Numbered from the stretch's first letter, positions 19,606 to 48,785 are shown. The stretch is DNA of 64,000 nucleotides from a virus (IMGVR_UViG_3300018405_000011); one strand, 5' to 3'. The notes: generated by a model not told the origin, from the sequence alone. Numbers and translations: made by a program.

Positions 19606-19635
19606 AAGAATCTAGTAGGATTAAGGAGATTACCC

Positions 19636-20052
19636 ATGACCATTTATGACATTGTCCCTGGACAGAAACTGAAGTTTTCAATCTATGGACAGATTAACAG
19701 CGTGAAGAACTTCGAAGGAACAATTGCCGGGCTAGTACTCGGCAGCTATGTTCCACAAACCGAAGACCCTTCCATTAACCATGCTAACATTTACCCAACC
19801 TTACCGGACTCTCGTAAAGAAGCGTTCCAAGACCTTTATACTTCATACCAGTATGTTCAGCTAGTACGTGCGGATAACAGCATTGTATATATCGGACTAC
19901 CATGGATTAATGATGCAACCATTGAGTCTTTAGAAAACGTTATTTGTGACATCCGCCTAACTAACTTTAAAGCTTCTCGTCGTGACGAACTCGTTCTCAA
20001 GTTAGCACAGTGGAACTTTGATGTAGAAAAGATAACGGTATCGACCGAGTAA
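19636..20052 (+). CDS. Conserved phiKZ gp49-like protein
   Basis: AAGGAG RBS; HANIYPTLP...YVQL...IGLPWIN pattern; located just upstream of the DNA polymerase gene. Confidence 0.55.
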   Translation: MTIYDIVPGQKLKFSIYGQINSVKNFEGTIAGLVLGSYVPQTEDPSINHANIYPTLPDSRKEAFQDLYTSYQYVQLVRADNSIVYIGLPWINDATIESLENVICDIRLTNFKASRRDELVLKLAQWNFDVEKITVSTE

Positions 20053-24274: not shown

Positions 24275-26152
24275 ATGTTCGATCCAAATGAAAACAAAGC
24301 ACCTAAAGCAACTAAAGTTCCAGCAGGCGACAATACTCAAGCAACATCGCAATCAAGCGACTTTTTCTCTGACTATCTAGCCGGTGCTTCTGACGTAGCA
24401 TCACGTTCTTCTGAAATCGTAGTTAAGGCAGTTGAGTTCCTAAACAAACGTTCTGAAGACGCTAAGCGTCTAAACGCTGACCGTGTAGGTCTACGTTTCA
24501 CTCACATCGATGACGAAACAGCGCTAGGTCTACCTGTTATCATCGCTTACAACACTAAAGGTCCGGTTAACGGTTTCTTCACTATCATCGTTGAAGAAGG
24601 CGCATACGACGGTAAGTTAAAAGGTCGTGAAGTACATGTACTGAACGAACAGATTGTTATCGACCAATCGACTTCTGATTATTGGGATGGTATCTTAGTT
24701 ACAACTATCGCTAAGCATCTGAAGCAGCTTACTCAAAAAGACTATGCGCACAATAGCTACATGGTTGCACGCGAGTGCATGGACTTGTCTAACGAGAAGT
24801 ACCTAGGTGCACTATACGCGACATCAGAGCGTAACCTAATGTCTCTGTCTGTAGTTAATGTCCCAACAATCGAAAACTTGAACCAACACGGTCTGTCATT
24901 GGAAATAAGCCATGACGTATCACCTGGTGCAACAGTTGAAGATTTAGAAGGTAACCCTGTTTACTGTGACGTTGAATCAACCGTAAGTCTAGGTGTGCCA
25001 CGTGACCGCAACAACAAAAACCGTTCACACAATGCCCGTGAGCGTCGTGCTACTCTTGTAAACGTACGTAGTTACCTAGACTTCGTGTTCCAACCAGCAA
25101 GTCAAGTCGCTACGTTACCTGGCACTCAAGAAATGATTCGCCCAGCATACCACCCAGTATTGATTCAAGCAGACAGCTCAGGTATCGATGCTCAAACTGG
25201 TAAAGCATTTGAATCACGTGAAACTGCACTGTTCGCATTGCTAGCAATGGCAGAGCTGGCGGCTAACCGTAACTACATCAACATTCTGCGTCGTAACCAC
25301 GGCGGTAAACCAGAAATTGGTGTATTAGGCTACCGTTGGGAAGGTCGCTACGGTGTACAAGACTGGGTACCGGCCGAAGTAGAAATCGATAAAGGTATCG
25401 CTACTGGCATGAACTCAGGTCGTCAAACACTGGATGCTTACCTAAAACGTAACGTACACGACACTATTACAGTAGCAGTCGACGTACTACGCGGTGGTCG
25501 TAACGCATGGATCTATGAACCATACGTACAGTCAGTGCTAGCGAACAACCCAAATGACCGTCTAGAAGCGAACACCAATATTGTTCGTATGATTGACGCG
25601 TTCACTAAAGGTCACTTCTCTGCACTATGGCCAGAAAACAAACCTATCTTCCAAGAGTCTGTTGTTGCAGTACACTCAGCAACTTACTTAGACAAAGATG
25701 GTCACGTACATGACGTACGTGAATGTGGTACGCTACAGCTACACCAACTTTACAAAGAGCAAACTGATGCACGCATGGCTGAGTTTGAAAAATCAATGGC
25801 ACCGGGTGGTTCTAACGGTGATGTTGGTCTAGTCAACATTCACAATCGTCGTCAAGTACTAAAACAAGTACTAGGTGCAGAAATCAATGGTATGATTGAA
25901 CGTCTGTTCTACATGCCTGACTTCTTCCCTGTGTTCTTAGAAGCGTGTGGTCGCGCTGGTCTTCGTGTTAGCTCTGAAGGTCTACACGACACAACTGTAG
26001 CTGGTAACATGGGCGTGGATAACTTCCACGCTGGTCAAATGCCTACAATGACAGGTATTTACCAAACCTCTACAGGTGGTTATGCAAACGGCCAAGGTCA
26101 ATACATCGGTGGCAACTACAGCTACGGTGCATATGGTGCCTACAACGGTTAA
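24275..26152 (+). CDS. chmA: Chimallin, phage nuclear shell protein (phiKZ gp54-like)
   Basis: 625 aa; flexible N-terminus and G/Y-rich C-terminal tail; strongly biased codon usage; canonical position between DNA polymerase and the nvRNAP beta-prime gene; strong terminator at about 26182-26217. Confidence 0.85.
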   Translation: MFDPNENKAPKATKVPAGDNTQATSQSSDFFSDYLAGASDVASRSSEIVVKAVEFLNKRSEDAKRLNADRVGLRFTHIDDETALGLPVIIAYNTKGPVNGFFTIIVEEGAYDGKLKGREVHVLNEQIVIDQSTSDYWDGILVTTIAKHLKQLTQKDYAHNSYMVARECMDLSNEKYLGALYATSERNLMSLSVVNVPTIENLNQHGLSLEISHDVSPGATVEDLEGNPVYCDVESTVSLGVPRDRNNKNRSHNARERRATLVNVRSYLDFVFQPASQVATLPGTQEMIRPAYHPVLIQADSSGIDAQTGKAFESRETALFALLAMAELAANRNYINILRRNHGGKPEIGVLGYRWEGRYGVQDWVPAEVEIDKGIATGMNSGRQTLDAYLKRNVHDTITVAVDVLRGGRNAWIYEPYVQSVLANNPNDRLEANTNIVRMIDAFTKGHFSALWPENKPIFQESVVAVHSATYLDKDGHVHDVRECGTLQLHQLYKEQTDARMAEFEKSMAPGGSNGDVGLVNIHNRRQVLKQVLGAEINGMIERLFYMPDFFPVFLEACGRAGLRVSSEGLHDTTVAGNMGVDNFHAGQMPTMTGIYQTSTGGYANGQGQYIGGNYSYGAYGAYNG

Positions 26153-28365: not shown

Positions 28366-29740
28366 AAACTAAAGTACAGTTTGCTCCATTAAGGAGAAAC
28401 TCGTGGAAATTAAACTACACGGAGACACTTTCAGAAAATCTTTAGAACATCCTTCTATTGTCGTTTCTCGGACCGGCAAACTCTTTAATCTAAAAGAAAA
28501 CGCTTACATTGAAATCAATCCTCCTAAAGAAGATTGGTACTTGACGTTTACTTCTCCTGACACAGGCAAGACATCATTACTCCATCGCTTAGTTGGGGAA
28601 TGCTGGGTGTCTAACCCTAGCCCGGAAACGTTCACCCTGATTAACCATAAGAACGGTAATAAACATGACCCGCACTTTGGAAATCTAGAGTGGACCGACC
28701 ATAGTGGTAATATACGTCACGCCTATGAACATGGTCTACGTACCGAAATGCAGACACTCGAAGTTTTCGATAAAGTAACACAGAAATGGTTTAAATCTAA
28801 AGGTCTAAATAAGACCGCGGCCTTAATCGACCTATCTCCGGCGCAACTGTCTTATCACCTTAAGGCAAAGGGCTGGTTTGAAAATGCCAATTTCATCACT
28901 CAGCTTTCTAACCTGGAAAGCCGTAAGGTGGCTGACCGTACTTTGTTTCCAGTAGGTGTTTTCGCCAAAGATATCGAAACAGGGAAGGTCGTTATAGCTG
29001 AAAACATTTCGCGCCTATCTAAAACCATAGGGGTTCCGAAGTCCAATATAAGACGTTGCATAGTGAAGGGAAAAGAATACCCCTCCAATGGCTACTTGTT
29101 TAGTTTGGACGGTGAGTTCCCAGAGACATGGAAAGATAACCATCGGACTAAAAAAGCCGTGGTCTACTTACATGAAGACGGGCGTAGAGTAATTGCCGTT
29201 TCGGATAGAGAAGCACAGAAACTGACAGGTATTAATGCTAAGCGTATAGTTAGAATGAAGAAAGAAGGTTCATCCTTTAAAGGTTGGAAAGTGCAAACTG
29301 GATAAGTCCGCCTCTATGGTGACATACAGGTGAGAATACGTGAATTGCTGGTAAAGTCTAAAGCCTAACACCAAAACGGATAGCGAAAGCTAAAACGGTA
29401 ACGGTGACGAAAGTCAGAAAAGACGTTAGGATGACCTATGGTGAGAGCCTAAGGGTTTTGACAATGGACAGCTCAGCAGCCAAGCGCCTACGGATTGTTG
29501 TGATAACAAGCTATGGTGAAGGTTCAACGACTATTACTGGGTACGGCACCCGATGTAGGAGAGCAAGCGCCTCCGAAGTGCGTATATCTGGAGTTGACTG
29601 AAGAAGTCTTATTCTCCAGAACTGATATAGTCTCGGCGTATCGCAAGATACCTGCTAGCCTGTGATGGTTAGTCGTCCGGTGAAACCCCGGAGCAGCATT
29701 AAGTTGCGGGTAAGGGATAGCATCCTTACTGAAGATAACG
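28366..29740 (+). mobile_element. Group I intron (1375 nt) in the nvRNAP beta-prime gene
   Basis: P GAATTGCTGG (29342), Q TCAGCAGC (29473), R GTTCAACGACTA (29522), S GATATAGTCT (29624); terminal G at 29740; removal joins NAD to FDGDQ. Confidence 0.92.
28403..29305 (+). CDS. Intron-encoded HNH homing endonuclease
   Basis: LHRLVGECW...INHKNGNKHDPHFGNLEW HNH motif; C-terminal NUMOD1-like repeats; AAGGAG RBS before GTG. Confidence 0.88.
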   Translation: MEIKLHGDTFRKSLEHPSIVVSRTGKLFNLKENAYIEINPPKEDWYLTFTSPDTGKTSLLHRLVGECWVSNPSPETFTLINHKNGNKHDPHFGNLEWTDHSGNIRHAYEHGLRTEMQTLEVFDKVTQKWFKSKGLNKTAALIDLSPAQLSYHLKAKGWFENANFITQLSNLESRKVADRTLFPVGVFAKDIETGKVVIAENISRLSKTIGVPKSNIRRCIVKGKEYPSNGYLFSLDGEFPETWKDNHRTKKAVVYLHEDGRRVIAVSDREAQKLTGINAKRIVRMKKEGSSFKGWKVQTG

Positions 29741-31698: not shown

Positions 31699-32328
31699 AT
31701 GCTTAATACCATTTATGCCGATAGCGACGTCGGCATTGCCAGTTTGTTTGGTCGGCCCAGCCAAGCCTTACAAGCTAGAATCAATCAAGGGGTACAGGCT
31801 TTCTTAGAAAGAACCAGCCCCTATTGTTCAGACTTAGCGGCATCGGTAGCCCACCGTTTCCATGAATATACACATGGTGACTTTGCCCGCCGTGTAAATA
31901 GCGTCCGTGGGTACATTAATCAAAGCTTTAAATCTGATGGAATCCGTTATCTATCTAATGTAGAAGAGTTACAGAATGCCCCTGCATCAATGCGTCATTA
32001 TGTAATGGCACATCCTGGCATGCGTGAACTCTATCAGCAAAACTGTATCGAAGGCTATGGCGATGCTTATCGTGATGCTTCGCCAACAGGTATTGGTCGC
32101 ACTCACTACGACTATCGCGTCATTACTAATGGTGTTGTACAAGCAGAAGAAATGGATGACGGAGAAACAAGAATGATAGCTCGTCGTTATTACGAAGCGG
32201 TAGTGCCTGAGTACACGCCTACGTTAAGCGATAAGGCCGCAGTACAGATTACCTACGATGTACTGACTCGTCATTTACGTGACTCATTGCTTGACCCTAG
32301 TTCTGAAAACAATGCCTTAATCGGCTAA
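31699..32328 (+). CDS. phiKZ gp59-like conserved protein (Imp3 candidate)
   Basis: LQNAPASMRHYVMAHPGMRELY...EGYGDAY...HYDYRVI pattern plus synteny. Confidence 0.55.
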   Translation: MLNTIYADSDVGIASLFGRPSQALQARINQGVQAFLERTSPYCSDLAASVAHRFHEYTHGDFARRVNSVRGYINQSFKSDGIRYLSNVEELQNAPASMRHYVMAHPGMRELYQQNCIEGYGDAYRDASPTGIGRTHYDYRVITNGVVQAEEMDDGETRMIARRYYEAVVPEYTPTLSDKAAVQITYDVLTRHLRDSLLDPSSENNALIG

Positions 32329-32357
32329 TAAAAGAAAGGGCGTTTGTCCTTTCTTTT

Positions 32358-32795
32358 TTGTCAACTATAGGAACCACCATCATGCCCGTACCTGCAATAG
32401 GCACTCTATCGTCAGACGGTTACGTTACTGACCCTAAAAAACAACTTTCGTATATGTTTGCCCACATATTCGAAACCCGTCATAATGACACCATCCTTTT
32501 CACAGGACAACTTACTTCGATTCAGTTACTGACCGCTAAGTACGCTAAAGACAGTGCGGTGTTTCGTACCGAACTTACGGCAGCATTAACAAAATACTTT
32601 TCTCGTGTCTTTGATAGTGCTAAAGTTATCGTTACCACTGAAGATATCGATGAGTCTAGCTACATGGCTTCTATAGACGTCAAGGTGACGCGTAATGGCG
32701 AACTTTATAGCTTAGGTGCTGAGCTGTCTATAGACCCCTTAAAATCCATTACACGCCTGATTAAGGAGATTAACCAGTCAATAACCTCCCCCTAA
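32358..32795 (+). CDS. Conserved phiKZ gp62-like protein; stop codon supplied by the IscB element left end
   Basis: 145 aa; the last codons (SITSP*) lie inside the element beginning at 32777. Confidence 0.6.
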   Translation: MSTIGTTIMPVPAIGTLSSDGYVTDPKKQLSYMFAHIFETRHNDTILFTGQLTSIQLLTAKYAKDSAVFRTELTAALTKYFSRVFDSAKVIVTTEDIDESSYMASIDVKVTRNGELYSLGAELSIDPLKSITRLIKEINQSITSP

Positions 32796-33023
32796 AGGGG
32801 TAGGCTTGTAAAAGCCTAATTGACCAGCCTTAGTTCTTAACAGAACTACGTTATCTTAGTTATCATACCCTGGGGTGGCCGGTCCAGCCCCAGGCTCTAT
32901 GCAGGCTCTGTAAACAGTTCTAGAGGTAAGAACCGTCAACCTGGTGAGCCGATTACGGTAAGCTTTGATAACATTGGCGAGGACCACTTAACTGCTTAAA
33001 TGCACGTAAACAGGAACGATATT
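32777..33023 (+). ncRNA. omegaRNA (HEARO-type) scaffold 1
   Basis: 247 nt directly upstream of the iscB ATG; conserved GTCA..., GACCAGCC, CTACGTT and ACATTGGCGAGG elements; multiple stems covary with copy 2. Confidence 0.88.
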
Positions 33024-34481
33024 ATGTCTAATTCCGTATTCGTCTTAAATGACGATAAAACGCCCTTAATGCCGTGTAAGCCGGCTAGGGCGAGATTATT
33101 ATTAAAACAAGGTAGGGCGGCTGTGTTTAGAACCCATCCCTTTACTATCATTCTAAAAGAACAGATAGAGAACCCTGTACTGGAAACGATAAGGGTAAAG
33201 GTAGACCCCGGTAGTAAAACCACCGGGATAGCCTTAACAGTTCACTATAAAAGAGGAGTAAAGTGCATCTGGGGAGCCAACCTAGAACACCGAGGTCATG
33301 CTATAAAAGATGCATTACTATCTAGAGCACAGTGTCGTAGAGGGAGGCGTGGCCGAAAGTTACGCCACCGTAAACCTAGATTCTTAAATCGGTTTAAACC
33401 TGAGGGATGGCTTGCACCAAGCATTATGTCTAGAGTAGATAATACACTAACTTGGGTAAATCGCTTGATGCGGTACTGTCCTGTGGGACAGGCCTCTGTA
33501 GAACTTGTTAAGTTTGATATGCAGAAGATGGAAAATCCTGAGGTTACAGGTAAAGGATACCAACAAGGTACTTTACACAACTATGAAGTTAAAGAATACT
33601 TACTGTATCGCTATAACCATACTTGTCAGTATTGCAAAGGCGTCAGTAAAGACCATATTCTAGAGATAGAGCACATTGTACCTAAATCTAAAGGAGGCAC
33701 GAATAGTATTGGTAATCTAACTTTAGCCTGTTCGAGCTGTAACCGACATAAGAATAACCATACTTTGAAAGACTGGTTAGAAATAAACCGTGGTCTAAAA
33801 ACACCTCTGGCTAAAGCCAGGGTACGTAACATCCCTAGTGTGATATCAAGACGTAAACCTACGCTTAGAGACGCTGCCGCTGTCAATGCGACGAGACATA
33901 GGCTAGTAGAAGAGCTAGGGTTTTTAGGACTACCGACGGAGTCGGAGGGAGGGCATGTTACGAAGTATAACCGCCGCCGGCAAGGCTATCCGAAGGACCA
34001 CTGGATAGATGCTGCGCTAGTAGGTGATACGGGCAGTAACGTGCACATACCGAAATCTACGCATCCGTTACTTATTAAAAAGACTAAAGTTAATAACCGT
34101 CAAATGACTAGGCCGGATAAGTATGGTTTTCCTAGAACTAAACCTAAAGGCCCGTCTAAAGCCTTCGGGTTTAAAACAGGTGATGTGGCTAAGCATGGTA
34201 GGCTTATTGGCCGCGTAGCGATAAGAACATGCGGTTACTTTAACTTTTTAGGTAAAGGCTGCAGTTACCGGCACTTAAAACGTATCCAGTCAGTAGATGG
34301 TTACCAGTACACCGACGGTAAGTTAACAAGTCTAATAACAGAAACCGACTACTTGCCATGGTTTACTTATGTACATTCCGTTACTAAAATAGATGGTAGT
34401 GCTAAAAAGATAACTGGCAAGCTTAATAAGGAGGGAAAGAGATTTTTATGTACACCAAAAAATACATCAGGCACGTCCTGA
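33024..34481 (+). CDS. iscB: IscB RNA-guided endonuclease 1 (485 aa)
   Basis: PLMP motif, RuvC-I VDPGSKTTG, Arg-rich bridge helix RRGRRGRKLRHR, RuvC-II VELVKFD, HNH EHIVPKSKGGTNSIGNL...CN, RuvC-III HWIDA. Confidence 0.95.
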   Translation: MSNSVFVLNDDKTPLMPCKPARARLLLKQGRAAVFRTHPFTIILKEQIENPVLETIRVKVDPGSKTTGIALTVHYKRGVKCIWGANLEHRGHAIKDALLSRAQCRRGRRGRKLRHRKPRFLNRFKPEGWLAPSIMSRVDNTLTWVNRLMRYCPVGQASVELVKFDMQKMENPEVTGKGYQQGTLHNYEVKEYLLYRYNHTCQYCKGVSKDHILEIEHIVPKSKGGTNSIGNLTLACSSCNRHKNNHTLKDWLEINRGLKTPLAKARVRNIPSVISRRKPTLRDAAAVNATRHRLVEELGFLGLPTESEGGHVTKYNRRRQGYPKDHWIDAALVGDTGSNVHIPKSTHPLLIKKTKVNNRQMTRPDKYGFPRTKPKGPSKAFGFKTGDVAKHGRLIGRVAIRTCGYFNFLGKGCSYRHLKRIQSVDGYQYTDGKLTSLITETDYLPWFTYVHSVTKIDGSAKKITGKLNKEGKRFLCTPKNTSGTS

Positions 34482-34526
34482 TTCCTCAGGGGACTAAAGT
34501 CCCCGGTATTCTCAGGAGAAAATAAA

Positions 34527-35003
34527 ATGAGTGGTTTTATAGTCCCAGAAAACGTTTTTCCTTCTATTAAGGAAAGTTTGTTCCGTGACCGTTATTTGCC
34601 TGCCTTCATTAATAACGATAAAGAGCTTTGCTTAGAGTGGGTAGAGCGCATCTCTATCTCTCCCTTTGCAAAAGTACGTGTAGTCGATGATTCGGATATG
34701 GATAAGATTCTATTTGAAGTCCCGCCACTAGTACGTGGTCCAGAGACTCAGATAGGCGGAAACTTCAATGCCGTAATGCAAACCGCTAGCCGTATTGCAG
34801 AAAACTACAACAGTAAAGTGACTGAGCGCTATATCCGTGATACGTTAAATGGGCGCTTTGTCTGTGAAACCGAATCCGACGCTGACATGGAAGCGTGGAT
34901 TGACATTGCAATTCGTTATGGATATAGTCGTCCAGATACACCACAATCTACTGCCTCAGGAAACAATAATGGATTGGTTAACGAAGAAGAAGACTGGGAT
35001 TAA
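34527..35003 (+). CDS. Conserved phiKZ gp64-like protein
   Basis: 158 aa, acidic C-terminus; RBS AGGAG lies in the element's right end. Confidence 0.6.
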   Translation: MSGFIVPENVFPSIKESLFRDRYLPAFINNDKELCLEWVERISISPFAKVRVVDDSDMDKILFEVPPLVRGPETQIGGNFNAVMQTASRIAENYNSKVTERYIRDTLNGRFVCETESDADMEAWIDIAIRYGYSRPDTPQSTASGNNNGLVNEEEDWD

Positions 35004-36141
35004 CATCCTTTACTTTTCCGATGTACATATGCTTCATCCCCGTGTACGCAGTCGAGATATTGCTGACCGATTACAAAAGCTAATCCTTAATGTTATCAAA
35101 CACCATGTGTTAGACTATATCATCATTGCTGGGGACTTTTATGATGAAAGTGGCTATTTACCCGATGAAGATGTATTTGTAGTAGAAGAGTTTATACGTG
35201 TGCTGATTCATCTATGTGCACATAATCATATCAAGCTTCGGATACTAGAAGGTACCCCGTCCCACGATAGAAAGCAATCTCGCCACTTCGTTAAGGTAAA
35301 TAATTTCCTTAGTGGAAAAGAAAAGGCCGACTTAAAATACATCGAGACATTGGACATTGTTAAGGAAGAAGATGGTTCGACATGGCTTTATGTCCCAGAT
35401 GAATGGCATCATGACCCAGATGTTGTCTGGAAGCAGGTACGGGATAGGCTGAATCAGGAAGGTTTAACTCAGGTAGACTTTTCCGTAACACACGGGATGT
35501 ATAAGCACCATGTACCACATGGACTGGATTTAAAAGCCCATGACCCTGACCGGTATCTGGATATCACCCGTTACTATGTAGACAATGGGCATATCCATAC
35601 AAAGTCTGTCTACAAAGACAGGTTCATTACCAATGGGTCACCTGACCGTTTGGCTATGGGGGAAGAGGAAAGTAAAGGGATATGGATGGCTCATGTAAGT
35701 AGTCACTCACGTATGGAAGACAAATTGTTTTTCTTTGAAAATAAAGAAGCCACGTATATGGTAACTTTAGACATTAAAGAACATACCTTTGAGAGAAGTA
35801 AAGAAGTCATCGAGTCCCATTGCCATCCTACAGAAAGACGCTTTATTCGTCTGGAAATCTCAGAAGAGCTTTATAGTCAAGGACTGATGAGTTATTTCCA
35901 AGACTTATACCCTAATATAGTCTGGACAAAAAAGGTCACTCGCAATGACAATATGCAAGTCTCTTTTTTAGAGGCATTAAATGCTAAAGTGCACAATAGA
36001 CCTATTAATGCCAACACAATCGAAGACCTTTTCTTAGAAGAAGCACGTCTTCGTAATGTAGACGAGAATGAGGTTATAGATGCCTTAGCTTTTTTGAAAT
36101 CCCAACCCTTTTATGTCAGTAACCTCCCCCTAAAGGGGTAG
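34969..36141 (+). CDS. sbcD: SbcD/Mre11-like metallophosphoesterase nuclease (phiKZ gp65-like)
   Basis: FSDVH, AGDFYD, EGTPSHD, THG and GHIH motifs; probable start ATG 34969; stop codon lies inside IscB element 2. Confidence 0.85.
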   Translation: MDWLTKKKTGINILYFSDVHMLHPRVRSRDIADRLQKLILNVIKHHVLDYIIIAGDFYDESGYLPDEDVFVVEEFIRVLIHLCAHNHIKLRILEGTPSHDRKQSRHFVKVNNFLSGKEKADLKYIETLDIVKEEDGSTWLYVPDEWHHDPDVVWKQVRDRLNQEGLTQVDFSVTHGMYKHHVPHGLDLKAHDPDRYLDITRYYVDNGHIHTKSVYKDRFITNGSPDRLAMGEEESKGIWMAHVSSHSRMEDKLFFFENKEATYMVTLDIKEHTFERSKEVIESHCHPTERRFIRLEISEELYSQGLMSYFQDLYPNIVWTKKVTRNDNMQVSFLEALNAKVHNRPINANTIEDLFLEEARLRNVDENEVIDALAFLKSQPFYVSNLPLKG

Positions 36142-36361
36142 GCATGTAAGTGCCTAACTGACCAGCCTTAGTCCCGTTAGGGACTACGTTATCTTAGTTA
36201 TCATACCCCGGTGTGGCCGGTCCAGCACCGGGCGCTATGCAGGCTCTGTAAACATACCTAGAGGTAGGGTAAGTCAACCTGGAGAGCCGATTACGGTAAG
36301 CTTTGATAACATTGACGAGGACCACGTAACTGCCCTACGGGCACGTAAAGGGAACGATATT
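36115..36361 (+). ncRNA. omegaRNA (HEARO-type) scaffold 2
   Basis: 247 nt upstream of the iscB2 ATG; colinear with copy 1, with compensatory changes. Confidence 0.88.
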
Positions 36362-37834
36362 ATGTCTAATTCCGTATTCGTCTTAAATGACGATAAAACG
36401 CCATTAATGCCGTGTAAACCGGCACGGGCGAGATTATTATTAAAACAAGGTAGGGCAGCAGTTTTCAGAAAGCAGCCCTTTACTATCATTATGAAAGAAC
36501 AGATAGAAAACCCTGTTCTTGAGAACATTGAGGTAAAGATAGACCCCGGTAGTAAAACCACCGGGATAGCGCTAGTAATGAATACTAAACGTGGAGCTAG
36601 ATGTATCTGGGGTGCCAACCTTAAGCACCGAGGTCAGCAGATACGTGATGCCTTATTGTCCCGCGCTCAAACGCGACGGGGGCGACGCAGTCGTAAACTG
36701 CGCTACCGTAAGCCTCGATTTTTAAACCGAGTTAAATCTAAAGGGTGGTTGGCGCCCAGTATTTACACTCGAGTAGATAATACCCTCACTTGGGTTAACC
36801 GTCTTATGCGCTATTCGCCAGTGACGTCGGCAGTGGTTGAACTCGTTAAGTTTGATATGCAAAAGATGGAAAACCCGGAGATTGCAGGTAAGGCGTATCA
36901 GCGAGGAAGTCTCTTTAACTATGAAGTTAAAGAGTATTTACTGTATCGATATAACCACACCTGTCAGTATTGTTCTGGTGCATCTAAAGACCCCATTTTG
37001 GAGATTGAACATATTGTTCCTAGAGCATCAGGTGGTAGCAATCGACTGAGTAACCTGACACTCTCCTGTGCGACATGTAACCGAGAGAAAGGGAAACTGT
37101 CTTTGGCTGACTGGAAGGATAAATGTACCCACCGAAAAAACCCTATTGACATGAAGCGATTAAAAGGTATTGTTCGAGTGGGACAGAACATTAAGCCCGC
37201 ACTGAAAGATGCGGCTGCCGTGAACGCTACTCGATATCGTCTAGTAGCTGAGCTGGACTATCTGGGACTACATACGGAAACCTCAGGAGGACACATTACC
37301 AAATATAATCGTAAGCAACAGGGTTATCCGAAGGACCATTGGATAGATGCTGCTTTAGTCGGAGAAAGGGGTTCTCACGTTCATATCCCTCCGGAGTTAC
37401 ATCCTTTAATCATTAAAAAGGTAAAAGTTAATAACCGCCAGATGACAAAGCCTGACAAATATGGCTTCCCTCGAACGAAAGCTAAAGGTCCTTCCCGAGC
37501 TTTCGGTTTTAAGACAGGAGATATCGCGGCTTCCCCGTTTGGCGTGGGGAGGGTGGTCATCCGGACCTCGGGTACTTTTAACGTATTAGGAAGAGATGTT
37601 AGCTGGAAGCGTTTAGTCCATCTCTCCTTTACTGACGGTTACGAATATGTGGACCAACGCATCGTCAAGATGATTGTTGATAAGCATACTGTAATTAAAG
37701 AGGTGTTTGAGAGAGTCATATCAAAAACATTAATTGACGCCGATTCCCTTCTCATAGAAGGTACATTGAATCGTAAAGTAGTTCATGGTATCCGTAGGGA
37801 CAGTAAAACTAGAGACCATACTAAACTATATTAA
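36362..37834 (+). CDS. iscB: IscB RNA-guided endonuclease 2 (490 aa)
   Basis: PLMP, IDPGSKTTG, RRGRRSRKLRYR, VELVKFD, EHIVPRASGGSNRLSNL...CN and HWIDA all intact. Confidence 0.95.
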   Translation: MSNSVFVLNDDKTPLMPCKPARARLLLKQGRAAVFRKQPFTIIMKEQIENPVLENIEVKIDPGSKTTGIALVMNTKRGARCIWGANLKHRGQQIRDALLSRAQTRRGRRSRKLRYRKPRFLNRVKSKGWLAPSIYTRVDNTLTWVNRLMRYSPVTSAVVELVKFDMQKMENPEIAGKAYQRGSLFNYEVKEYLLYRYNHTCQYCSGASKDPILEIEHIVPRASGGSNRLSNLTLSCATCNREKGKLSLADWKDKCTHRKNPIDMKRLKGIVRVGQNIKPALKDAAAVNATRYRLVAELDYLGLHTETSGGHITKYNRKQQGYPKDHWIDAALVGERGSHVHIPPELHPLIIKKVKVNNRQMTKPDKYGFPRTKAKGPSRAFGFKTGDIAASPFGVGRVVIRTSGTFNVLGRDVSWKRLVHLSFTDGYEYVDQRIVKMIVDKHTVIKEVFERVISKTLIDADSLLIEGTLNRKVVHGIRRDSKTRDHTKLY

Positions 37835-37850
37835 TCATAAGGAGTAAACG

Positions 37851-38627
37851 ATGACTCCACGTACCGTAGGAGAAAAGTTAGCGTTTTCAGTAGGGACAGC
37901 TATCCCTTTAGAGGAACACGTTGTTTCAGATGGGTATAAAGCCGACGCTATTCTGTTAAACGTGAAAACGTTATTTAGAAACTTCTGGGGGGCGTGGCCA
38001 AATACCGACCGTCCTCCAGTACAGCAAATGTTTGAGCTTTTTGTAGAAGAAGTTAGAGACATTATGGCACTGTGTCAAACGATGGGAATAACACCTGTCC
38101 TATATCACTTGACTTATGCCTCACTGAGCAATCGTTATCCGAATGCTACGTTAGTAGTTCCTAAGACCGATAACCAGAAGGCCTATGCCAGCGCCGAAGC
38201 AGCTATGATGAAGGTAGCCATTAGTCAGTTCCCAGAAATGGTAAAGAGCGATTTAACATTACCGTCTTTTAACGGAAACGTTTATCTGTTAAGTTCATAC
38301 CCAGTAGACTTACTTAATGCGCATCGCTATGTATCGTTAAAGTTACTCGAGAGCCATACGGGGAATGTGAAAGGACGCGCTGAGTGGTTTAGTAAACTCA
38401 GTAACGCTCCTGAACTACAACACCTTCCATTTAACCATTTCATGTTACAGGTATTTGGTGACCGGGCTACTCAGTTTGTAGGCCAATCCCAGAAGATAAA
38501 GAAAGCCGTCATTAAACTAGCACTTTCTCGTAACTGGAATCAGTCTACTACCCTTACCCGTATACGTGAAAATCTCACATCGATTGAAGACAGTGACTTG
38601 CGCAAACAGTGCCTGTCATTTGTCTAA
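37851..38627 (+). CDS. Conserved phiKZ gp66-like protein
   Basis: 258 aa; AAGGAG RBS; synteny after sbcD. Confidence 0.55.
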   Translation: MTPRTVGEKLAFSVGTAIPLEEHVVSDGYKADAILLNVKTLFRNFWGAWPNTDRPPVQQMFELFVEEVRDIMALCQTMGITPVLYHLTYASLSNRYPNATLVVPKTDNQKAYASAEAAMMKVAISQFPEMVKSDLTLPSFNGNVYLLSSYPVDLLNAHRYVSLKLLESHTGNVKGRAEWFSKLSNAPELQHLPFNHFMLQVFGDRATQFVGQSQKIKKAVIKLALSRNWNQSTTLTRIRENLTSIEDSDLRKQCLSFV

Positions 38628-38647
38628 CCCGACAATAAGGATACCCT

Positions 38648-39334
38648 ATGACAGGCTATGTAAAAACCCCACTGAGTCATCGTAAGCTGGCACTTCGAGG
38701 TGTTCCCTACTCCGAAGACAGTTATAAGGCACCGCAGTTTGTACCCGACATGTTCGCTGGTAACCCGCAGTTAGTTGCCTGGGCAGAGTTTCCAGAAGAA
38801 AAAGACAAAGTCGATAGCCGCACTGGAAAGTCCATGTGGAAGGTACCCATTAAGGCCTCTACAAGCTGGCCTAGACTGCGCAGCTTATTGATGGACATAA
38901 AGTCATTGATTGGTAACAGTGACCCCGTAGTGAGACGCGTAGAGACCCTTACACTACCACCGGACGAAAGCGGTGAAGGAGTAGGCACTGGACGAGTGCA
39001 TCAGGCCTACATCTATTATGGCCGAGCCAAATCTGGGCACTTGTTCATTGCTCTAGAAAACGCAGACCGACCACGATGTACTTTCTTGTTTGAAGAAGAC
39101 AGTTGGCATAATTACCAAAGTAAAGAAGACAGTCAGCAGGCTGCCTCTGTACGTTCGGATAATGTGGCGCTGGGGTATATTGATACGCTTATCGATACAT
39201 ACCAGTGGGTCTTTACTAACAAGTATGACCCTGACTTCGTTCCAAAACGAAAACCACGCATTCCGCCAAACCCTGTGTACGAAGAGCAACCTAAAACGGA
39301 AACGACTCCTGTTGTAACAGAAGGCTGGGAATAA
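38648..39334 (+). CDS. phiKZ gp67-like protein (ChmC/Imp6 nucleic-acid-binding candidate)
   Basis: 228 aa directly upstream of the gp68-like subunit; YYGRAKSGHLFIAL...RPRCTFLF pattern; assignment mainly by synteny. Confidence 0.5.
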   Translation: MTGYVKTPLSHRKLALRGVPYSEDSYKAPQFVPDMFAGNPQLVAWAEFPEEKDKVDSRTGKSMWKVPIKASTSWPRLRSLLMDIKSLIGNSDPVVRRVETLTLPPDESGEGVGTGRVHQAYIYYGRAKSGHLFIALENADRPRCTFLFEEDSWHNYQSKEDSQQAASVRSDNVALGYIDTLIDTYQWVFTNKYDPDFVPKRKPRIPPNPVYEEQPKTETTPVVTEGWE

Positions 39335-44747: not shown

Positions 44748-44815
44748 CTTTTATGAATGCGTTGATAGTAACGCATGGTGTTCTAAAAGATTCACAACAG
44801 CACAAGGAGAAACCA

Positions 44816-46015
44816 GTGGGAACCATCGAAAAGTTACTCAATCGTTCTGAGTTAACAGGTACAACCGATCTTATTACCCCATATGGAAGTCCAGACTCCA
44901 GCCCGCGTTTACACATGGTCGCCGCCCAGTCCCAACAGGCAATGCAGCCATTACGCCCAGATATCCCTATCTCTTTGACAGGTTACGAAGTACAGATGTC
45001 TAAGACGACAATGGCCATCACGATGCCCTGTGACGCTATTATCGAGGACATCATCTCGCATCACGTATCCGCCGTTATGTCACAGCGTGACACGGTAACC
45101 AAAACGATAGTCTATCAAGACGTAGATACGGGTGAGTATGGGAGTATTGAGCTAGAAGGGTATTTCCGAGCACACGACGTGTTTGGGGCACGTTTAAACC
45201 TAACCCCAGAAGGTCAGCGTCTGCGCCCTGGCATGCAGGTCAAAAAGGATACAATTCTCGCTCACTCAAATGGCGCTAATGTTGGTGGTGTGTATACTAC
45301 GTCATTAACCACTGAAGTGGCTAACCTATCATTAAACGGCGTTATAGAAGACGGACTGATTGTTTCTGAAGAGTTCCTGAAAAGAGCTGCGCCTGTGGCG
45401 ATGGCATCGCGTGATATTGAAACCGGAAAAGAGCGTTATTTCGTTGGAGTATATAGCGAAGGTGGCGTATTCCGTGCCTTTCCCGGACCAGGCGAAAAGA
45501 TACGTGACGACAACTTAGTTTTCGCTACGCGTAACTATGACCCATTGTTAGACTGTGTCTATATGCTAGAAGACATGGTTGATACTGTGGACTTTGCCTA
45601 TGACGAATGCGTCTTTGCACCACCAGAGTGTGAAAATGCTAAAGTGGTAGATGTTACTGTATATAGCTCACCTTCAACCTCGCGCTTACGTCAGACTCCA
45701 CCTACCATGGAAGAGTCCTTAAACGTTTACCGTGAACAGAAAGGACACTACTGTAATAAACTGGTTGATATCTACCGTCGGCTAAGAAAGCAAGAAGGGA
45801 ATCGCTTAAAGCTATCACCGAAGCTAGAAGAGCTACTTACCTATGCGCTGGCAGATAAGCCGAATGACCAACCTCGTTCAAACAACTATTCTGGTGCAGG
45901 TACGGTTCAGTACACCTATAAGGCTAAGCAGATTGATGAGTGGTACGTATCAATTGAATTAGCCTGGATGTACGATTTAAGCTACGGTGCAAAATTCGCG
46001 GACTTACACGGATGT
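44816..46015 (+). CDS. Non-virion RNAP beta C-terminal subunit, exon 1 (phiKZ gp71-like)
   Basis: SSPRLHM..QSQQA, IEDGLIVSE and GAKFADLHGC; AAGGAG RBS before GTG 44816. Confidence 0.85.
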
Positions 46016-47903
46016 TTCTCTATAAGGACTGATTTTAATTAGTAACAAATGTACCAATAGTATGTATTTAAATTTTAATAGTGCGAGAATACAACTATGT
46101 TTTGGTACATTCCAGGAACAAACGATTGGGCGATTGATGAAGAACATATTCTTCGTAGTCCAGAAGGAAAACTCATCCGGCCGAGTGTTAACCAAAGGGT
46201 TAGATTAACCCTGTACGGTAAACCAACGGCTACTTCATTGAAGCGTCTATTCCTTTTAGCGCATCATGACATGTTTTTACCAGATAGAAGTCTAGAGGGG
46301 CTCCAAAACGTTAAGTTTGTCCCTCAAGAGAAATCTGGCTTTACTGAAAGTAGTGGGTTCATGCCTATCTTCAAGGAACCCATTCACATTAATAAGGATT
46401 TTCGCGTATGTCCACTATGCCCAAGTCTGGCCGTAAATAAGGAGGGTACTAAAATTTATTGCTGGAGGACTGATAAGTATCTAAATGTTTATAGTCTCGC
46501 CGGTTACCGATACCTTACTCACTACGGCCGAAATTACAGGGTTCATAGATTAGTAGCATCGGCATGGGTAGAAAATCCAAATCCTCGGACTAAACCGGTT
46601 GTTAATCACATTGACCACAATAGAGATAACCCGCATTATCTTAACTTAGAATGGTGTACCCAGCAAGAAAATGCCGAGGCTATGGTGGAATATGGAAACA
46701 GCGCTACAGCCATCGAGTGTAAAGTTAGAGACTTTGTAACGGGCGTGGTAACTATTTATCCTAGTGTCAATGCCGTCGCTAAGGCGTTAGGTTTAAAACC
46801 ACCAATACATTTAAGTACTTTAATGTCTACCAACCCTTATCGTCTTTATATGGACCGCTACGAAATAAAGCCACTGATGGATCAGACCCCATGGAAAAAG
46901 ATATCTCCAGGAGAATCCAGGAAGTCCCAGTACACATTTGCAGTCTACGAGTCACCTGGTAATGCCTTGATTTATCATGATCGTATGCAGGTACAGAAAA
47001 ACTATAAGATATGGAACGTTCCTAACATCGAGCGCCTAATCGATAAGTTTTCTGAACTCCATCCTGACAAACGTATCTATTATTGCAAAAACTATATACA
47101 TGAGACTATACAGTCGATGCGTATAGGCACATGGGAAATTAAGGAGTGGGCTTCAATACGAGAAGCCTCTAGAAAACTTAATGTCAGTTTTTCGGCCATA
47201 CATGGAGTTATCCGTGATAACGCTTCTTCTAGAGAAGTTAAAGGTTACCTCTTTAGAACAACATCCTCGTTGCCGTGGGAACGCAATGTAGATGCATTTA
47301 AAAGTAAAAAAATGAGTTTAAAAGCAGTGCACGAAAAGGACGGAAGTACAATCAACTTTGTATCTCTGCGTGCCGCCGCCACCCACTTTAACTGTGATAG
47401 AAGCACCGTTAAAAGATGGATACGTAAAAAAATTGTTTTGTTCGGTTACTTTTTAAACAAAAGTTAATAGCATCCCTTAGCCAGTAATGGCTTTGAACAA
47501 ACTCCTCTAATTGCGGGAAGTTCTTGGTGAAACTTACTACCAACTTAATGCGGAAACGTAATTAAGGGCGCAGCTAATCACTGCGGTATGGTAAAAAGGT
47601 AAGTGGAAAGAAAATCGACGCAGCGAAGTTCCTAAGTCTATTAACAGATATGGAATGAGTTCAACGACTATCGAAAGGATAGCCATAGTGGTGACATTAT
47701 GGTGAATAACTGAGTAGAGTACAGCCACAGGCTTATGGTGGCCCTGGAGAACAGGATAGCGCACATGCGTAATGGAAACGGGGAGCCCCTACCTCATCTT
47801 TATAAAGATGTCGAGGGTGATGATATAGTCTGCCCCTTATGGCGACATAAGGCGGGTGTCTGAGCACACCGGGTCAACAATTGCACGTTGATTGGACAAA
47901 GGG
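46016..47903 (+). mobile_element. Group I intron (1888 nt) in the nvRNAP beta gene
   Basis: P AATTGCGGGAA (47509), Q AATCGACGCAGC (47613), R GTTCAACGACTA (47659), S GATATAGTCT (47822). Exon end GGATGT pairs with GCATCC (47470-47475) with a terminal U.G. Terminal G at 47903. Splicing gives HGCKGVV. Confidence 0.9.
46097..47467 (+). CDS. Intron-encoded HNH homing endonuclease
   Basis: RVHRLVASAW...VNHIDHNRDNPHYLNLEWCT; NUMOD1-like repeats WASIREASRKL and FVSLRAAATHF. Confidence 0.9.
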   Translation: MFWYIPGTNDWAIDEEHILRSPEGKLIRPSVNQRVRLTLYGKPTATSLKRLFLLAHHDMFLPDRSLEGLQNVKFVPQEKSGFTESSGFMPIFKEPIHINKDFRVCPLCPSLAVNKEGTKIYCWRTDKYLNVYSLAGYRYLTHYGRNYRVHRLVASAWVENPNPRTKPVVNHIDHNRDNPHYLNLEWCTQQENAEAMVEYGNSATAIECKVRDFVTGVVTIYPSVNAVAKALGLKPPIHLSTLMSTNPYRLYMDRYEIKPLMDQTPWKKISPGESRKSQYTFAVYESPGNALIYHDRMQVQKNYKIWNVPNIERLIDKFSELHPDKRIYYCKNYIHETIQSMRIGTWEIKEWASIREASRKLNVSFSAIHGVIRDNASSREVKGYLFRTTSSLPWERNVDAFKSKKMSLKAVHEKDGSTINFVSLRAAATHFNCDRSTVKRWIRKKIVLFGYFLNKS

Positions 47904-48785
47904 AAAGGCGTAGTCTGTGAAATTCGTCCACGTAGCCAAATGCCACGTGATGACTTCGGCAATATTGCCGATGTAGTACAATCAGGAATCTCTGTCTTTG
48001 CCCGTATGAATATCGGGCAAGAATATGAGCGTTACATTAATGCCGCATGTCGAGACGTGTCTAAAGATATGCGTAGAATGAATGCAGAAGGAGAATGGCT
48101 AGAAGCATTTAACCATGGTATGGGACTAATCCGTATTGTCTCACCGGAACAATACGAGCACTATCTTAAGGTTAAAAATACTGACCTTAAGAAACGTGAA
48201 TGGGTAGACAGTGTTGCTGAAGATATACTGCGTCTATTAGTGCGTCCGGATTCCGGAATACTAAGCAAAGAGCTTATCACTGCGATTCGAGAATATCGTC
48301 GTCCCGATAAGTCACCTATTACTTATTATAACTATGACGGTAATCTTATCCGCACTGAAAAGACGGCTTTAATCGGTCCTAAACAAATGATTGTCTTAGA
48401 TAAGTCATCGTTTAAACCAATGGCGGTAGCCGTATCCCGACGTCAACAACATGGTTTACCAGCGACCACCAACAAACGCACCAAGGTTGCCTTCCCGACT
48501 AACCGACAGCCGCCGAGAAGTTGGGGTGAAACCGAAAACCGAAATCTGTGTGCCGCAATGGGAGGTGAAGCCGTATTGTACCAAACAGACCAATCCACTA
48601 ACCCAGACGCAACGCGCAATGCATTAGAGAGCATGTTACGTAAACCTAAGCCATTTAAAACCTTTAAGCACTTAGACCGCACTAAGGTACCTGAAGGTGG
48701 GTCACGCACGATTCAGTTCGTTAAGAACTTATTAGGCGCGATGGCGATTAAATTTACCACACTGATACCAAAAGGAAATCGATGA
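47904..48785 (+). CDS. Non-virion RNAP beta C-terminal subunit, exon 2 (phiKZ gp73-like)
   Basis: KGVVCEIRPRSQMPRD, RMNIGQEYE and GETENRN motifs; spliced protein about 693 aa. Confidence 0.85.
   Translation, partial: KGVVCEIRPRSQMPRDDFGNIADVVQSGISVFARMNIGQEYERYINAACRDVSKDMRRMNAEGEWLEAFNHGMGLIRIVSPEQYEHYLKVKNTDLKKREWVDSVAEDILRLLVRPDSGILSKELITAIREYRRPDKSPITYYNYDGNLIRTEKTALIGPKQMIVLDKSSFKPMAVAVSRRQQHGLPATTNKRTKVAFPTNRQPPRSWGETENRNLCAAMGGEAVLYQTDQSTNPDATRNALESMLRKPKPFKTFKHLDRTKVPEGGSRTIQFVKNLLGAMAIKFTTLIPKGNR

Follow-up and report, generated by a model that had tools for sequence, protein, structure and literature searches.

What keeps two complete RNA-guided nuclease genes in place between the core genes of a jumbo phage when no transposase gene stands beside them? 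The question is raised by a 64,000-nucleotide stretch of viral DNA (IMGVR_UViG_3300018405_000011; this whole stretch is called the window below), which harbours two IscB elements of 1.74-1.75 kb each (element 1, 32777-34526; element 2, 36115-37850). Both are built from an omegaRNA, an iscB gene and a short right end, and can be classed by their sequence as non-autonomous, tnpA-less elements of the IS200/IS605 type (ISC). The explanation that appears rather likely is that these are transposase-less OMEGA elements maintained by RNA-guided cutting of empty alleles, which amounts to homing. The predicted parts of the two systems are as follows.

32761..32776, plus strand: predicted 16-nt guide 1, directly 5' of the HEARO RNA and formed by the end of gene A
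32777..32992, plus strand: scaffold of omegaRNA 1 (HEARO), RF02033 positions 1-211 of 211, 139 bits; begins GTCAATAACC, the left end of element 1
33024..34481, plus strand: iscB1, 485 aa, Pfam RRXRR and HNH
36099..36114, plus strand: predicted 16-nt guide 2, the tail of the SbcD-like gene, with a boundary uncertain by 1 nt
36115..36330, plus strand: scaffold of omegaRNA 2 (HEARO), RF02033 positions 1-211 of 211, 117 bits; the left end of element 2
36362..37834, plus strand: iscB2, 490 aa, Pfam RRXRR and HNH

Comparisons of sequences and of a structure model confirmed the observation of two IscB elements. Both open reading frames match Pfam RRXRR (E 4e-71 and 9e-72) and, after it, HNH; upstream of the iscB1 start at 33024 there is a further ATG in frame, at 33000, which is probably not the start codon. 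The PLMP motif and the Arg-rich bridge helix are present in IscB1 and IscB2 alike, as are RuvC-I (DPGS), the RuvC-II Glu (VELVKFD), the RuvC-III His/Asp (KDHWIDA) and the HNH site (EIEHIVP..N..N, with two CxxC pairs). All these motifs align with their counterparts in OgeuIscB (7xht), and sequence matches in the PDB were obtained to six IscB structures. For an AlphaFold model of IscB1 (pLDDT 80) the best PDB matches were solved IscB-omegaRNA-DNA complexes (8csz, E 8e-23). The domain order is that of IscB, with PLMP/RRXRR at the N terminus, a RuvC fold interrupted by the bridge helix and the HNH insert, and a TAM-interaction domain at the C terminus. The initial annotation, made by a model from the DNA sequence alone, had described the catalytic RuvC and HNH residues, the PLMP domain and the bridge helix as intact in both proteins, and Pfam, the OgeuIscB alignment and the model fold bear this out. 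A HEARO RNA stands directly 5' of each iscB on the same strand (the gathering score of RF02033 in Rfam is 83), so that the description of both systems as complete, with an intact protein and a full-length omegaRNA each, also holds. Each predicted guide is the last 16 nt of the upstream gene, in agreement with the suggestion that the guide derives from the flanking phage gene. Guide 1 contains the sequence that once served gene B as its ribosome-binding site. At 19621-19636, before another start codon, the window has a stretch that differs from guide 1 by one mismatch; it is followed by TGAC and not by ATGA, is probably not a target and reflects shared sequence resembling a ribosome-binding site.

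Both the proteins and the RNAs appear to be maintained by selection. IscB1 and IscB2 are 68% identical over ~430 residues, with a nonsynonymous divergence (dN) of 0.29 at saturated synonymous sites (dN/dS ~0.1). Between IscB1 and IscB3, a third protein encoded by a close relative of this phage, dN is 0.088 and the synonymous divergence (dS) 0.43, giving a dN/dS of ~0.2. These values indicate purifying selection on the IscB proteins. In the three omegaRNAs of elements 1-3, compensatory double changes are seen in 9 of the 65 predicted pairs, and 2 pairs are broken. The last 55-60 residues of IscB1 and IscB2 diverge strongly. This C-terminal extension of ~50 aa (IscB1 residues ~430-485, 34311-34481; IscB2 residues ~430-490, 37650-37834) is 31-35% identical between the two tails and is predicted by the model, with moderate confidence (pLDDT 55-72), to form a small beta-rich unit. 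Most IscBs of the phage-borne clade described below have such an extension of ~50 residues after the DGYxY motif, and typical bacterial relatives are without it.

The element ends were placed by comparing occupied with empty sites, and the features on which this placement and its consequences rest are the following.

32358..32795, plus strand: gene A, upstream core gene (PHROG 3294); native end at ~32776, the last 5 codons and the stop codon coming from the omegaRNA scaffold
34466..34504, plus strand: two right-end hairpins of element 1, a remnant of the IS200/IS605-type subterminal structure
34514..34518, plus strand: Shine-Dalgarno sequence AGGAG of element 1, 8 nt before the ATG of gene B; the last base of the element is 34526
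34527..34530, plus strand: ATGA, the putative target-adjacent motif (TAM) of element 1 and the start codon of gene B
34527..35003, plus strand: gene B (PHROG 5171), starting at this ATGA
34969..36141, plus strand: SbcD-like core gene (PHROG 100), the last 8 codons and the stop codon coming from omegaRNA 2
37839..37844, plus strand: Shine-Dalgarno sequence AAGGAG at the right end of element 2; the last base of the element is 37850, and the right-end hairpin is gone
37851..37854, plus strand: ATGA, the putative TAM of element 2 and the start codon of the 37851-38627 gene
37851..38627, plus strand: core gene downstream of element 2 (PHROG 3229), starting at this ATGA

The left end of every element is GTCA(A/G)TAACC, the first scaffold bases of the omegaRNA. 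All three elements, including the one in the close relative, have their right end directly 5' of an ATGA with which the next gene begins. A target duplication is absent at the three loci when empty and occupied sites are compared. At site 1 an ancestral overlap of stop and start codons (…CA|ATGA) was split by the insertion. The elements are oriented like the surrounding operon, have the GC content of the phage and, as had been noted initially, lie within the chimallin and RNA polymerase core block of the window. In elements 1 and 3 the sequence AGGAG stands 8 nt before the ATG; the right ends of these two elements are homologous while their loci are different, which at the level of sequence shows that the elements supply their own replacement ribosome-binding site for the downstream gene. 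In bringing along the downstream gene's ribosome-binding site, the phage copies are adapted to a gene-dense genome. The longest open reading frame of the SbcD-like gene overlaps gene B by 155 nt (34849-35003); gene callers, and the homologue in Vibrio phage vB_VmeM-Yong XC31, start at 34969.

In IS200/IS605 biology the motif beside the element end serves both as the transposase target and as the TAM of the nuclease. Among the multi-copy elements of a Pseudomonadota metagenome-assembled genome and of Thiomargarita nelsonii, copy-to-copy similarity begins at GTCAACAACC and ends just past a nested hairpin (…ATATTTT ATGAA), after which the flanks differ. Seven copies in the two bacterial genomes end beside ATGA(A), and so does one further phage copy, the phage-borne relative L065, which ends next to ATGAAT, again a start codon. 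As ATGA is already present in the empty sites, it belongs to the flank and not to the element, and it is probably the TAM of these elements. An ATGA rule for the whole phage clade was considered and rejected: the next genes at L066, L068, L069 and L070 start with ATGT, ATGG or ATGC, and right ends are undefined there. Of 351 ATGA sites on the plus strand of the window 21 are gene starts, so that three insertions out of three on start codons would be expected by chance with a probability of ~2e-4. The observed three out of three reflects selection against insertions that break genes.

The genome in which the elements reside can be assigned from its gene content to a freshwater, chimallin-encoding, phiKZ-like (Chimalliviridae-like, nucleus-forming) jumbo phage. 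The chimallin or nuclear-shell protein is encoded at 24275-26152 (PHROG 4795, 1.4e-35; Pfam Chimallin_Phikzvirus), and the window also encodes several pieces of phiKZ-type RNA polymerase beta subunits (a split multisubunit RNA polymerase), a terminase and a DNA polymerase. The window is part of a 215,216-bp ENA metagenome contig. Among named phages Vibrio phage vB_VmeM-Yong XC31 comes nearest, one RNA polymerase subunit being 66% identical at the protein level, and a megablast search of 32000-39000 against GenBank phages gave no match at the DNA level. A much closer relative is represented by a 92,927-bp Logan contig (lineage L022), with a terminase that is 92% and an SbcD-like protein that is 82% identical. 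Searching IMG/VR with the SbcD-like protein did not yield close relatives. A scan of the window for sigma-70 promoters and terminators gave nothing usable, as these phages use their own polymerases.

Comparison of these genomes revealed presence/absence polymorphism at the same exact sites. In Yong XC31, sites 1 and 2 are empty: the gene A homologue overlaps the gene B homologue at ATGA, and the SbcD-like gene abuts the homologue of 37851-38627. Both sites are likewise empty in lineage L023 and in the close relative L022, the genes on either side again abutting or overlapping at ATGA. In L022 a PhiKZ_VTX-like and a DUF7193 gene are separated by a third element, with a full HEARO RNA and an IscB that is 87% identical to IscB1; at this third site the phage of the window is empty, with 18 nt between the two flanking genes. 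Thus sites 1 and 2 are empty in three lineages and site 3 is occupied in the relative and empty in the phage of the window, so that two related phages show reciprocal presence and absence. Such a pattern would be expected of a homing element. Element 3 (L013, 9754-11500) is a mosaic, its first ~100 nt being 96% identical to element 2 while the rest follows element 1 at 82-95%, which points to recombination between element lineages.

No transposase gene was found to accompany these elements. Six Y1 transposases from the genomes of IscB relatives were used in phmmer and hmmsearch searches of the six-frame open reading frames of the window, and none gave a match better than E 0.2; the statement that tnpA is lacking from the window was thus upheld. 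Likewise, tnpA was not found in ~90 kb of fetched loci from this phage and the relative. The structures on which a transposase would act are also fading: the z score of the right-end hairpin is -4.3 in the bacterial copies, -2.9 in element 1, -1.3 in element 3 and -0.6 in element 2, where the hairpin is gone. Decay of the hairpins that serve the transposase, together with conservation of nuclease and guide RNA, is what would be predicted if persistence depended on the nuclease and not on a transposase. Dependence on a transposase has thus apparently been lost in the phage elements.

The IscBs of these phages also form a lineage of their own. In a tree of the 120 best homologues from a collection of 5.8 billion proteins, IscB1, IscB2 and IscB3 form a clade (support 1.0) with six proteins of 489-501 aa as sisters (support 0.80), the whole lying inside a clade of 19-23 leaves (support 0.92-1.0). 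All eight contexts examined in this clade, including those of five further members, are phiKZ-like phage contigs. Two of the five encode the PhuZ tubulin (6e-66, 7e-94) and one phiKZ_gp29PR and PhiKZ_VTX, while the remaining ones carry a phiKZ-type polymerase and PHROG families of the series found in the window; a full HEARO RNA is present in four of the five. Among cellular IscBs the nearest, those of Dongshaea marina, Vibrio rotiferianus and Endozoicomonas, share 51-53% identity. IscB relatives from IMG/VR (L002-L011) are 44-49% identical and classed as proviral; they were set aside as uninformative for the lineage, the four largest being without chimallin. The exact 5' motif of the omegaRNA was not found in IMG/VR.

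Taken together, the intact parts, the ATGA-exact insertions, the reciprocal polymorphism and the selection in the absence of a transposase support homing. Under this mechanism each element would have landed exactly 5' of the ATGA start codon of a conserved phage gene, in operon orientation. Read-through transcription of the upstream gene would yield an omegaRNA that begins with the final 16 nt of that gene, and the IscB-omegaRNA complex would cut genome copies in which these 16 nt directly precede ATGA, that is the element-free allele. Such a target could be offered by a co-infecting sibling phage, or by the phage's own genome after excision. The occupied allele would be protected, the guide match being followed there by GTCA. 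Repair of the break by recombination with an element-bearing genome would then copy the element in, and the outcome would be a non-restorative 'transposon homing' that amounts to a gene drive acting in the phage population. Moves to new sites would have needed a Y1 transposase in trans, probably from a host; since three different sites were colonised, a transposase must have been needed at some time. Cleavage of the empty donor joints of bacterial elements by IscB is experimentally established (Meers et al., bioRxiv 10.1101/2023.03.14.532601), and spread of an IS605 insertion through a plasmid population independently of TnpA has been reported (review PMC13565253). Homing between co-infecting phages figures in the same 2026 review as a theoretical possibility only (PMC13565253).

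Several points weigh against homing as the explanation. Expression of the omegaRNAs, guide- and TAM-dependent cleavage of double-stranded DNA and import of IscB into the phage nucleus are all steps that we infer from sequence. The chimallin shell, inside which IscB would have to act, is known to exclude Cas9. The search for tnpA spanned the window and ~90 kb of loci fetched from this phage and the relative, and ~150 kb of the 215-kb genome lie outside it. The empty sites sampled match the guides poorly. In the close relative, empty site 1 agrees with guide 1 in 13 of 16 bases, the disagreements including both TAM-proximal ones, and site 2 bears no relation to guide 2; the relative's guide 3, in turn, agrees with the empty site in the phage of the window in 10 of 16 bases. 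The two TAM-proximal bases of guide 1 belong to the last codon of gene A, and this codon is a different one in each of the four lineages (Q, A, R, T). Because this codon varies, cutting across lineages is unlikely, and homing would operate only among very close siblings. The mismatches in the relative had also been considered as selected escape, an idea that was dropped since the final codon of gene A is simply unconstrained. The initial annotation had placed the targets of each guide in element-free alleles of co-infecting relatives; the presence/absence polymorphism is genuine, but with the sampled empty sites mismatching the guides the proposal would stand only for very close siblings outside the present sampling. 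Neither JGI metagenome contigs nor IMG/VR contained the reconstructed exact empty allele of site 1 or of site 2. For site 2 the ancestral state cannot be rebuilt to the base, the tail of SbcD in the relative being unrelated, and one extra T is unexplained.

The populations sampled also look fixed for both elements. In four freshwater metagenome runs from 2017-2018, one of which may be the source of the window, 96-97% of the region is present. Their Logan contigs, from which rare variants drop out, show occupied sites only and no joint by which an element is skipped. Contigs with an identical gene B all have IscB1 upstream, and no empty variant was seen among near-identical genomes. A wastewater run labelled as RNA-Seq contained two short identical pieces at low depth, which are probably DNA. 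In three freshwater runs (X2-X4) loose ends at 32803-32871 of the window lead to another HEARO-type RNA with a different 5' hairpin; its depth relative to the phage is variable (1.7, 1.9, 0.6), which assigns it to another genome.

A broader proposal goes beyond homing of these two elements, namely that the whole IscB-omegaRNA clade is adapted to nucleus-forming jumbo phages and acts inside the chimallin shell as RNA-programmed gene drives or as weapons in competition. Insertion before ATGA, a ribosome-binding site of their own, transposase independence and the beta-rich C-terminal extension of ~50 aa would all be part of this adaptation. The proposal must be regarded as tentative, with the odds somewhat against it.

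Among the rival explanations, the one that survives best is that the elements are passive passengers: a host TnpA would have dropped ordinary IscB insertion sequences into replicating phage DNA, where they are harmless and where IscB activity is irrelevant to persistence. In its favour, tnpA is missing from most IscB loci everywhere (Meers et al. preprint), the junctions between genes at which these insertions lie can take them without harm, both elements look fixed in the population of the sampled runs, and a natural cleavable target was not found in the sites of relatives, in JGI metagenomes or in IMG/VR. Passengers would not, however, be expected to keep proteins and an RNA structure under purifying selection at a divergence that saturates synonymous sites, nor to be phage-borne in every context examined in the clade. 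The hairpins recognised by a transposase decay in these elements while nuclease and RNA do not, and the elements carry a phage-specific ribosome-binding site. This explanation is therefore considered unlikely.

Somewhat less probable again is classical, restorative homing, in which a TnpA encoded by the host or by the phage outside the window still excises the elements and IscB re-installs them from sister copies within one infection, as shown for bacterial IS605 elements. Three insertion sites with exact ends adjoining ATGA imply that a transposase acted at least three times, element 1 still has its right-end hairpins, and the ~150 kb beyond the tnpA search leave room for such a gene. Set against this are element 2, which has lost its right-end structure and kept nuclease and RNA intact, and the lack of tnpA in the ~90 kb searched of this phage and the relative.

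It is improbable that IscB is a domesticated weapon which destroys diverged competitor phages by interference competition, comparable to PhiPA3 gp210, and does not serve the copying of the element. The targets are junctions of core genes present in ~300 phiKZ-like records, and the same window has two group I introns with HNH genes in its RNA polymerase genes. Nevertheless, it is in the least conserved bases of the junction that the guides end, with TAM-proximal mismatches to every relative sampled, and a 16-nt guide that is fixed by the flank cannot follow a diverging competitor. As the guides mismatch the sampled relatives, interference competition of the PhiPA3 kind is ranked below homing. 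That bacterial IscB elements were mis-joined into a phage contig can practically be dismissed: some short-read assemblies do fall apart at the repeated omegaRNA and iscB sequence, but contigs from several independent samples, including three further freshwater runs from separate studies, span all four element junctions with zero differences, the upstream genes read in frame into the scaffold and the elements share the GC content of the phage.

The two group I introns (Rfam RF00028, 52 and 75 bits) lie at 28403-29653 and 46097-47852 of the window. Each follows an HNH endonuclease reading frame and interrupts a gene for a phiKZ-type RNA polymerase subunit; PHROG 3295, for instance, is split at position 402/403 into 44753-46042 and 47892-48785. 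These units are of the same kind as the gp210 intron of PhiPA3. The close relative also has an intron at the first of the two positions, with a different reading frame (L022 835-2111), and beside this region lies a 458-aa reading frame with a faint NUMOD1 match (L022 1-349). The stretch upstream of the IscB sites is a hotspot for varied homing-type genes.

The presence of a selected IscB lineage in nucleus-forming phages means that an RNA-guided nuclease must either work inside the shell or act at a stage of infection that is unprotected, and either answer would be informative on nuclear import. The phage nucleus is known to shield phage DNA from DNA-targeting CRISPR nucleases and restriction enzymes, as reportedly found by Mendoza et al. 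in 2020 and Malone et al. in 2020. If it acts inside the shell, IscB would be a natural RNA-guided nuclease that enters a compartment from which Cas9 is excluded. Homing of these elements would give an example from nature of a process, 'non-restorative transposon homing' from one co-infecting phage to another, that is theoretical in PMC13565253. The putative start-codon TAM and the replacement ribosome-binding site illustrate how a mobile element can persist amid essential genes and spare them polar effects. On the practical side, these IscBs are compact and probably use a simple ATGA TAM.

An IscB in a phage is not new in itself, and the biochemistry is that of OMEGA systems. IscB-omegaRNA elements of the IS200/IS605/ISC type, such as those of OgeuIscB and GstIscB, were reportedly described by Altae-Tran et al. 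in 2021. The elements of the window resemble them in domain order, in catalytic residues, in a HEARO RNA 5' of the gene, in a left-flank guide and orientation with the upstream gene, in the lack of tnpA as in most loci and in a fixed short right-end motif (Meers et al., bioRxiv 10.1101/2023.03.14.532601). They differ in residing in a nucleus-forming jumbo phage, in a putative TAM that is the start codon of the next gene, in a right end that is a ribosome-binding site instead of a strong nested hairpin and in the C-terminal extension of ~50 aa. The DtIsrB nickase, for which an NTGA TAM was measured, likewise has a TAM containing TGA and accepts ATGA (PMC9581776); it lacks HNH and only nicks DNA, and the ATGA TAM proposed here is deduced from the flanks.

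Other phages carry IscB homologues as well. A match to IscB was found in 84 of 50,697 GenBank phage records, none of them from a chimallin phage. IscB homologues occur in phages of Ralstonia (Adzire and similar), of Microcoleus and of Nodularia, in the uncultured phage LR756508 of 484 kb and, together with an annotated HEARO RNA, in a Staphylococcus Silviavirus (PMC13346280), all at most 47% identical to the proteins described here. Like those genomes, the present one shows IscB homologues in a phage; unlike it, they do not encode chimallin. Full-text literature searches returned no paper linking IscB or TnpB with Chimalliviridae, chimallin or the phage nucleus. What appears to be new, as far as sequence comparison can tell, is a clade resident in jumbo phages, the start-codon TAM, the element-borne ribosome-binding site and the apparent loss of transposase dependence.

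Two further systems are close in lifestyle. In the account summarised in a review (Birkholz et al. 2024, cited in PMC13565253), the HNH endonuclease gp210 is encoded in an intron of PhiPA3, a chimallivirus. It too is a selfish nuclease whose gene lies in the core block of a nucleus-forming phage and whose target is expected in relatives that infect the same cell. It recognises this target through protein and sits in a self-splicing intron, whereas the IscB elements are predicted to recognise theirs by a 16-nt RNA guide and a TAM and lie between genes, not inside one. The free-standing homing endonuclease genes SegF and Mob of T-even phages perform 'intronless homing' (reviewed in PMC13565253). 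They are likewise nuclease cassettes between conserved genes, present or absent among relatives, and spread by break repair during co-infection. Sequence polymorphism nearby serves SegF and Mob in protecting the occupied allele, whereas the occupied IscB allele would be protected by loss of the TAM beside the guide match.

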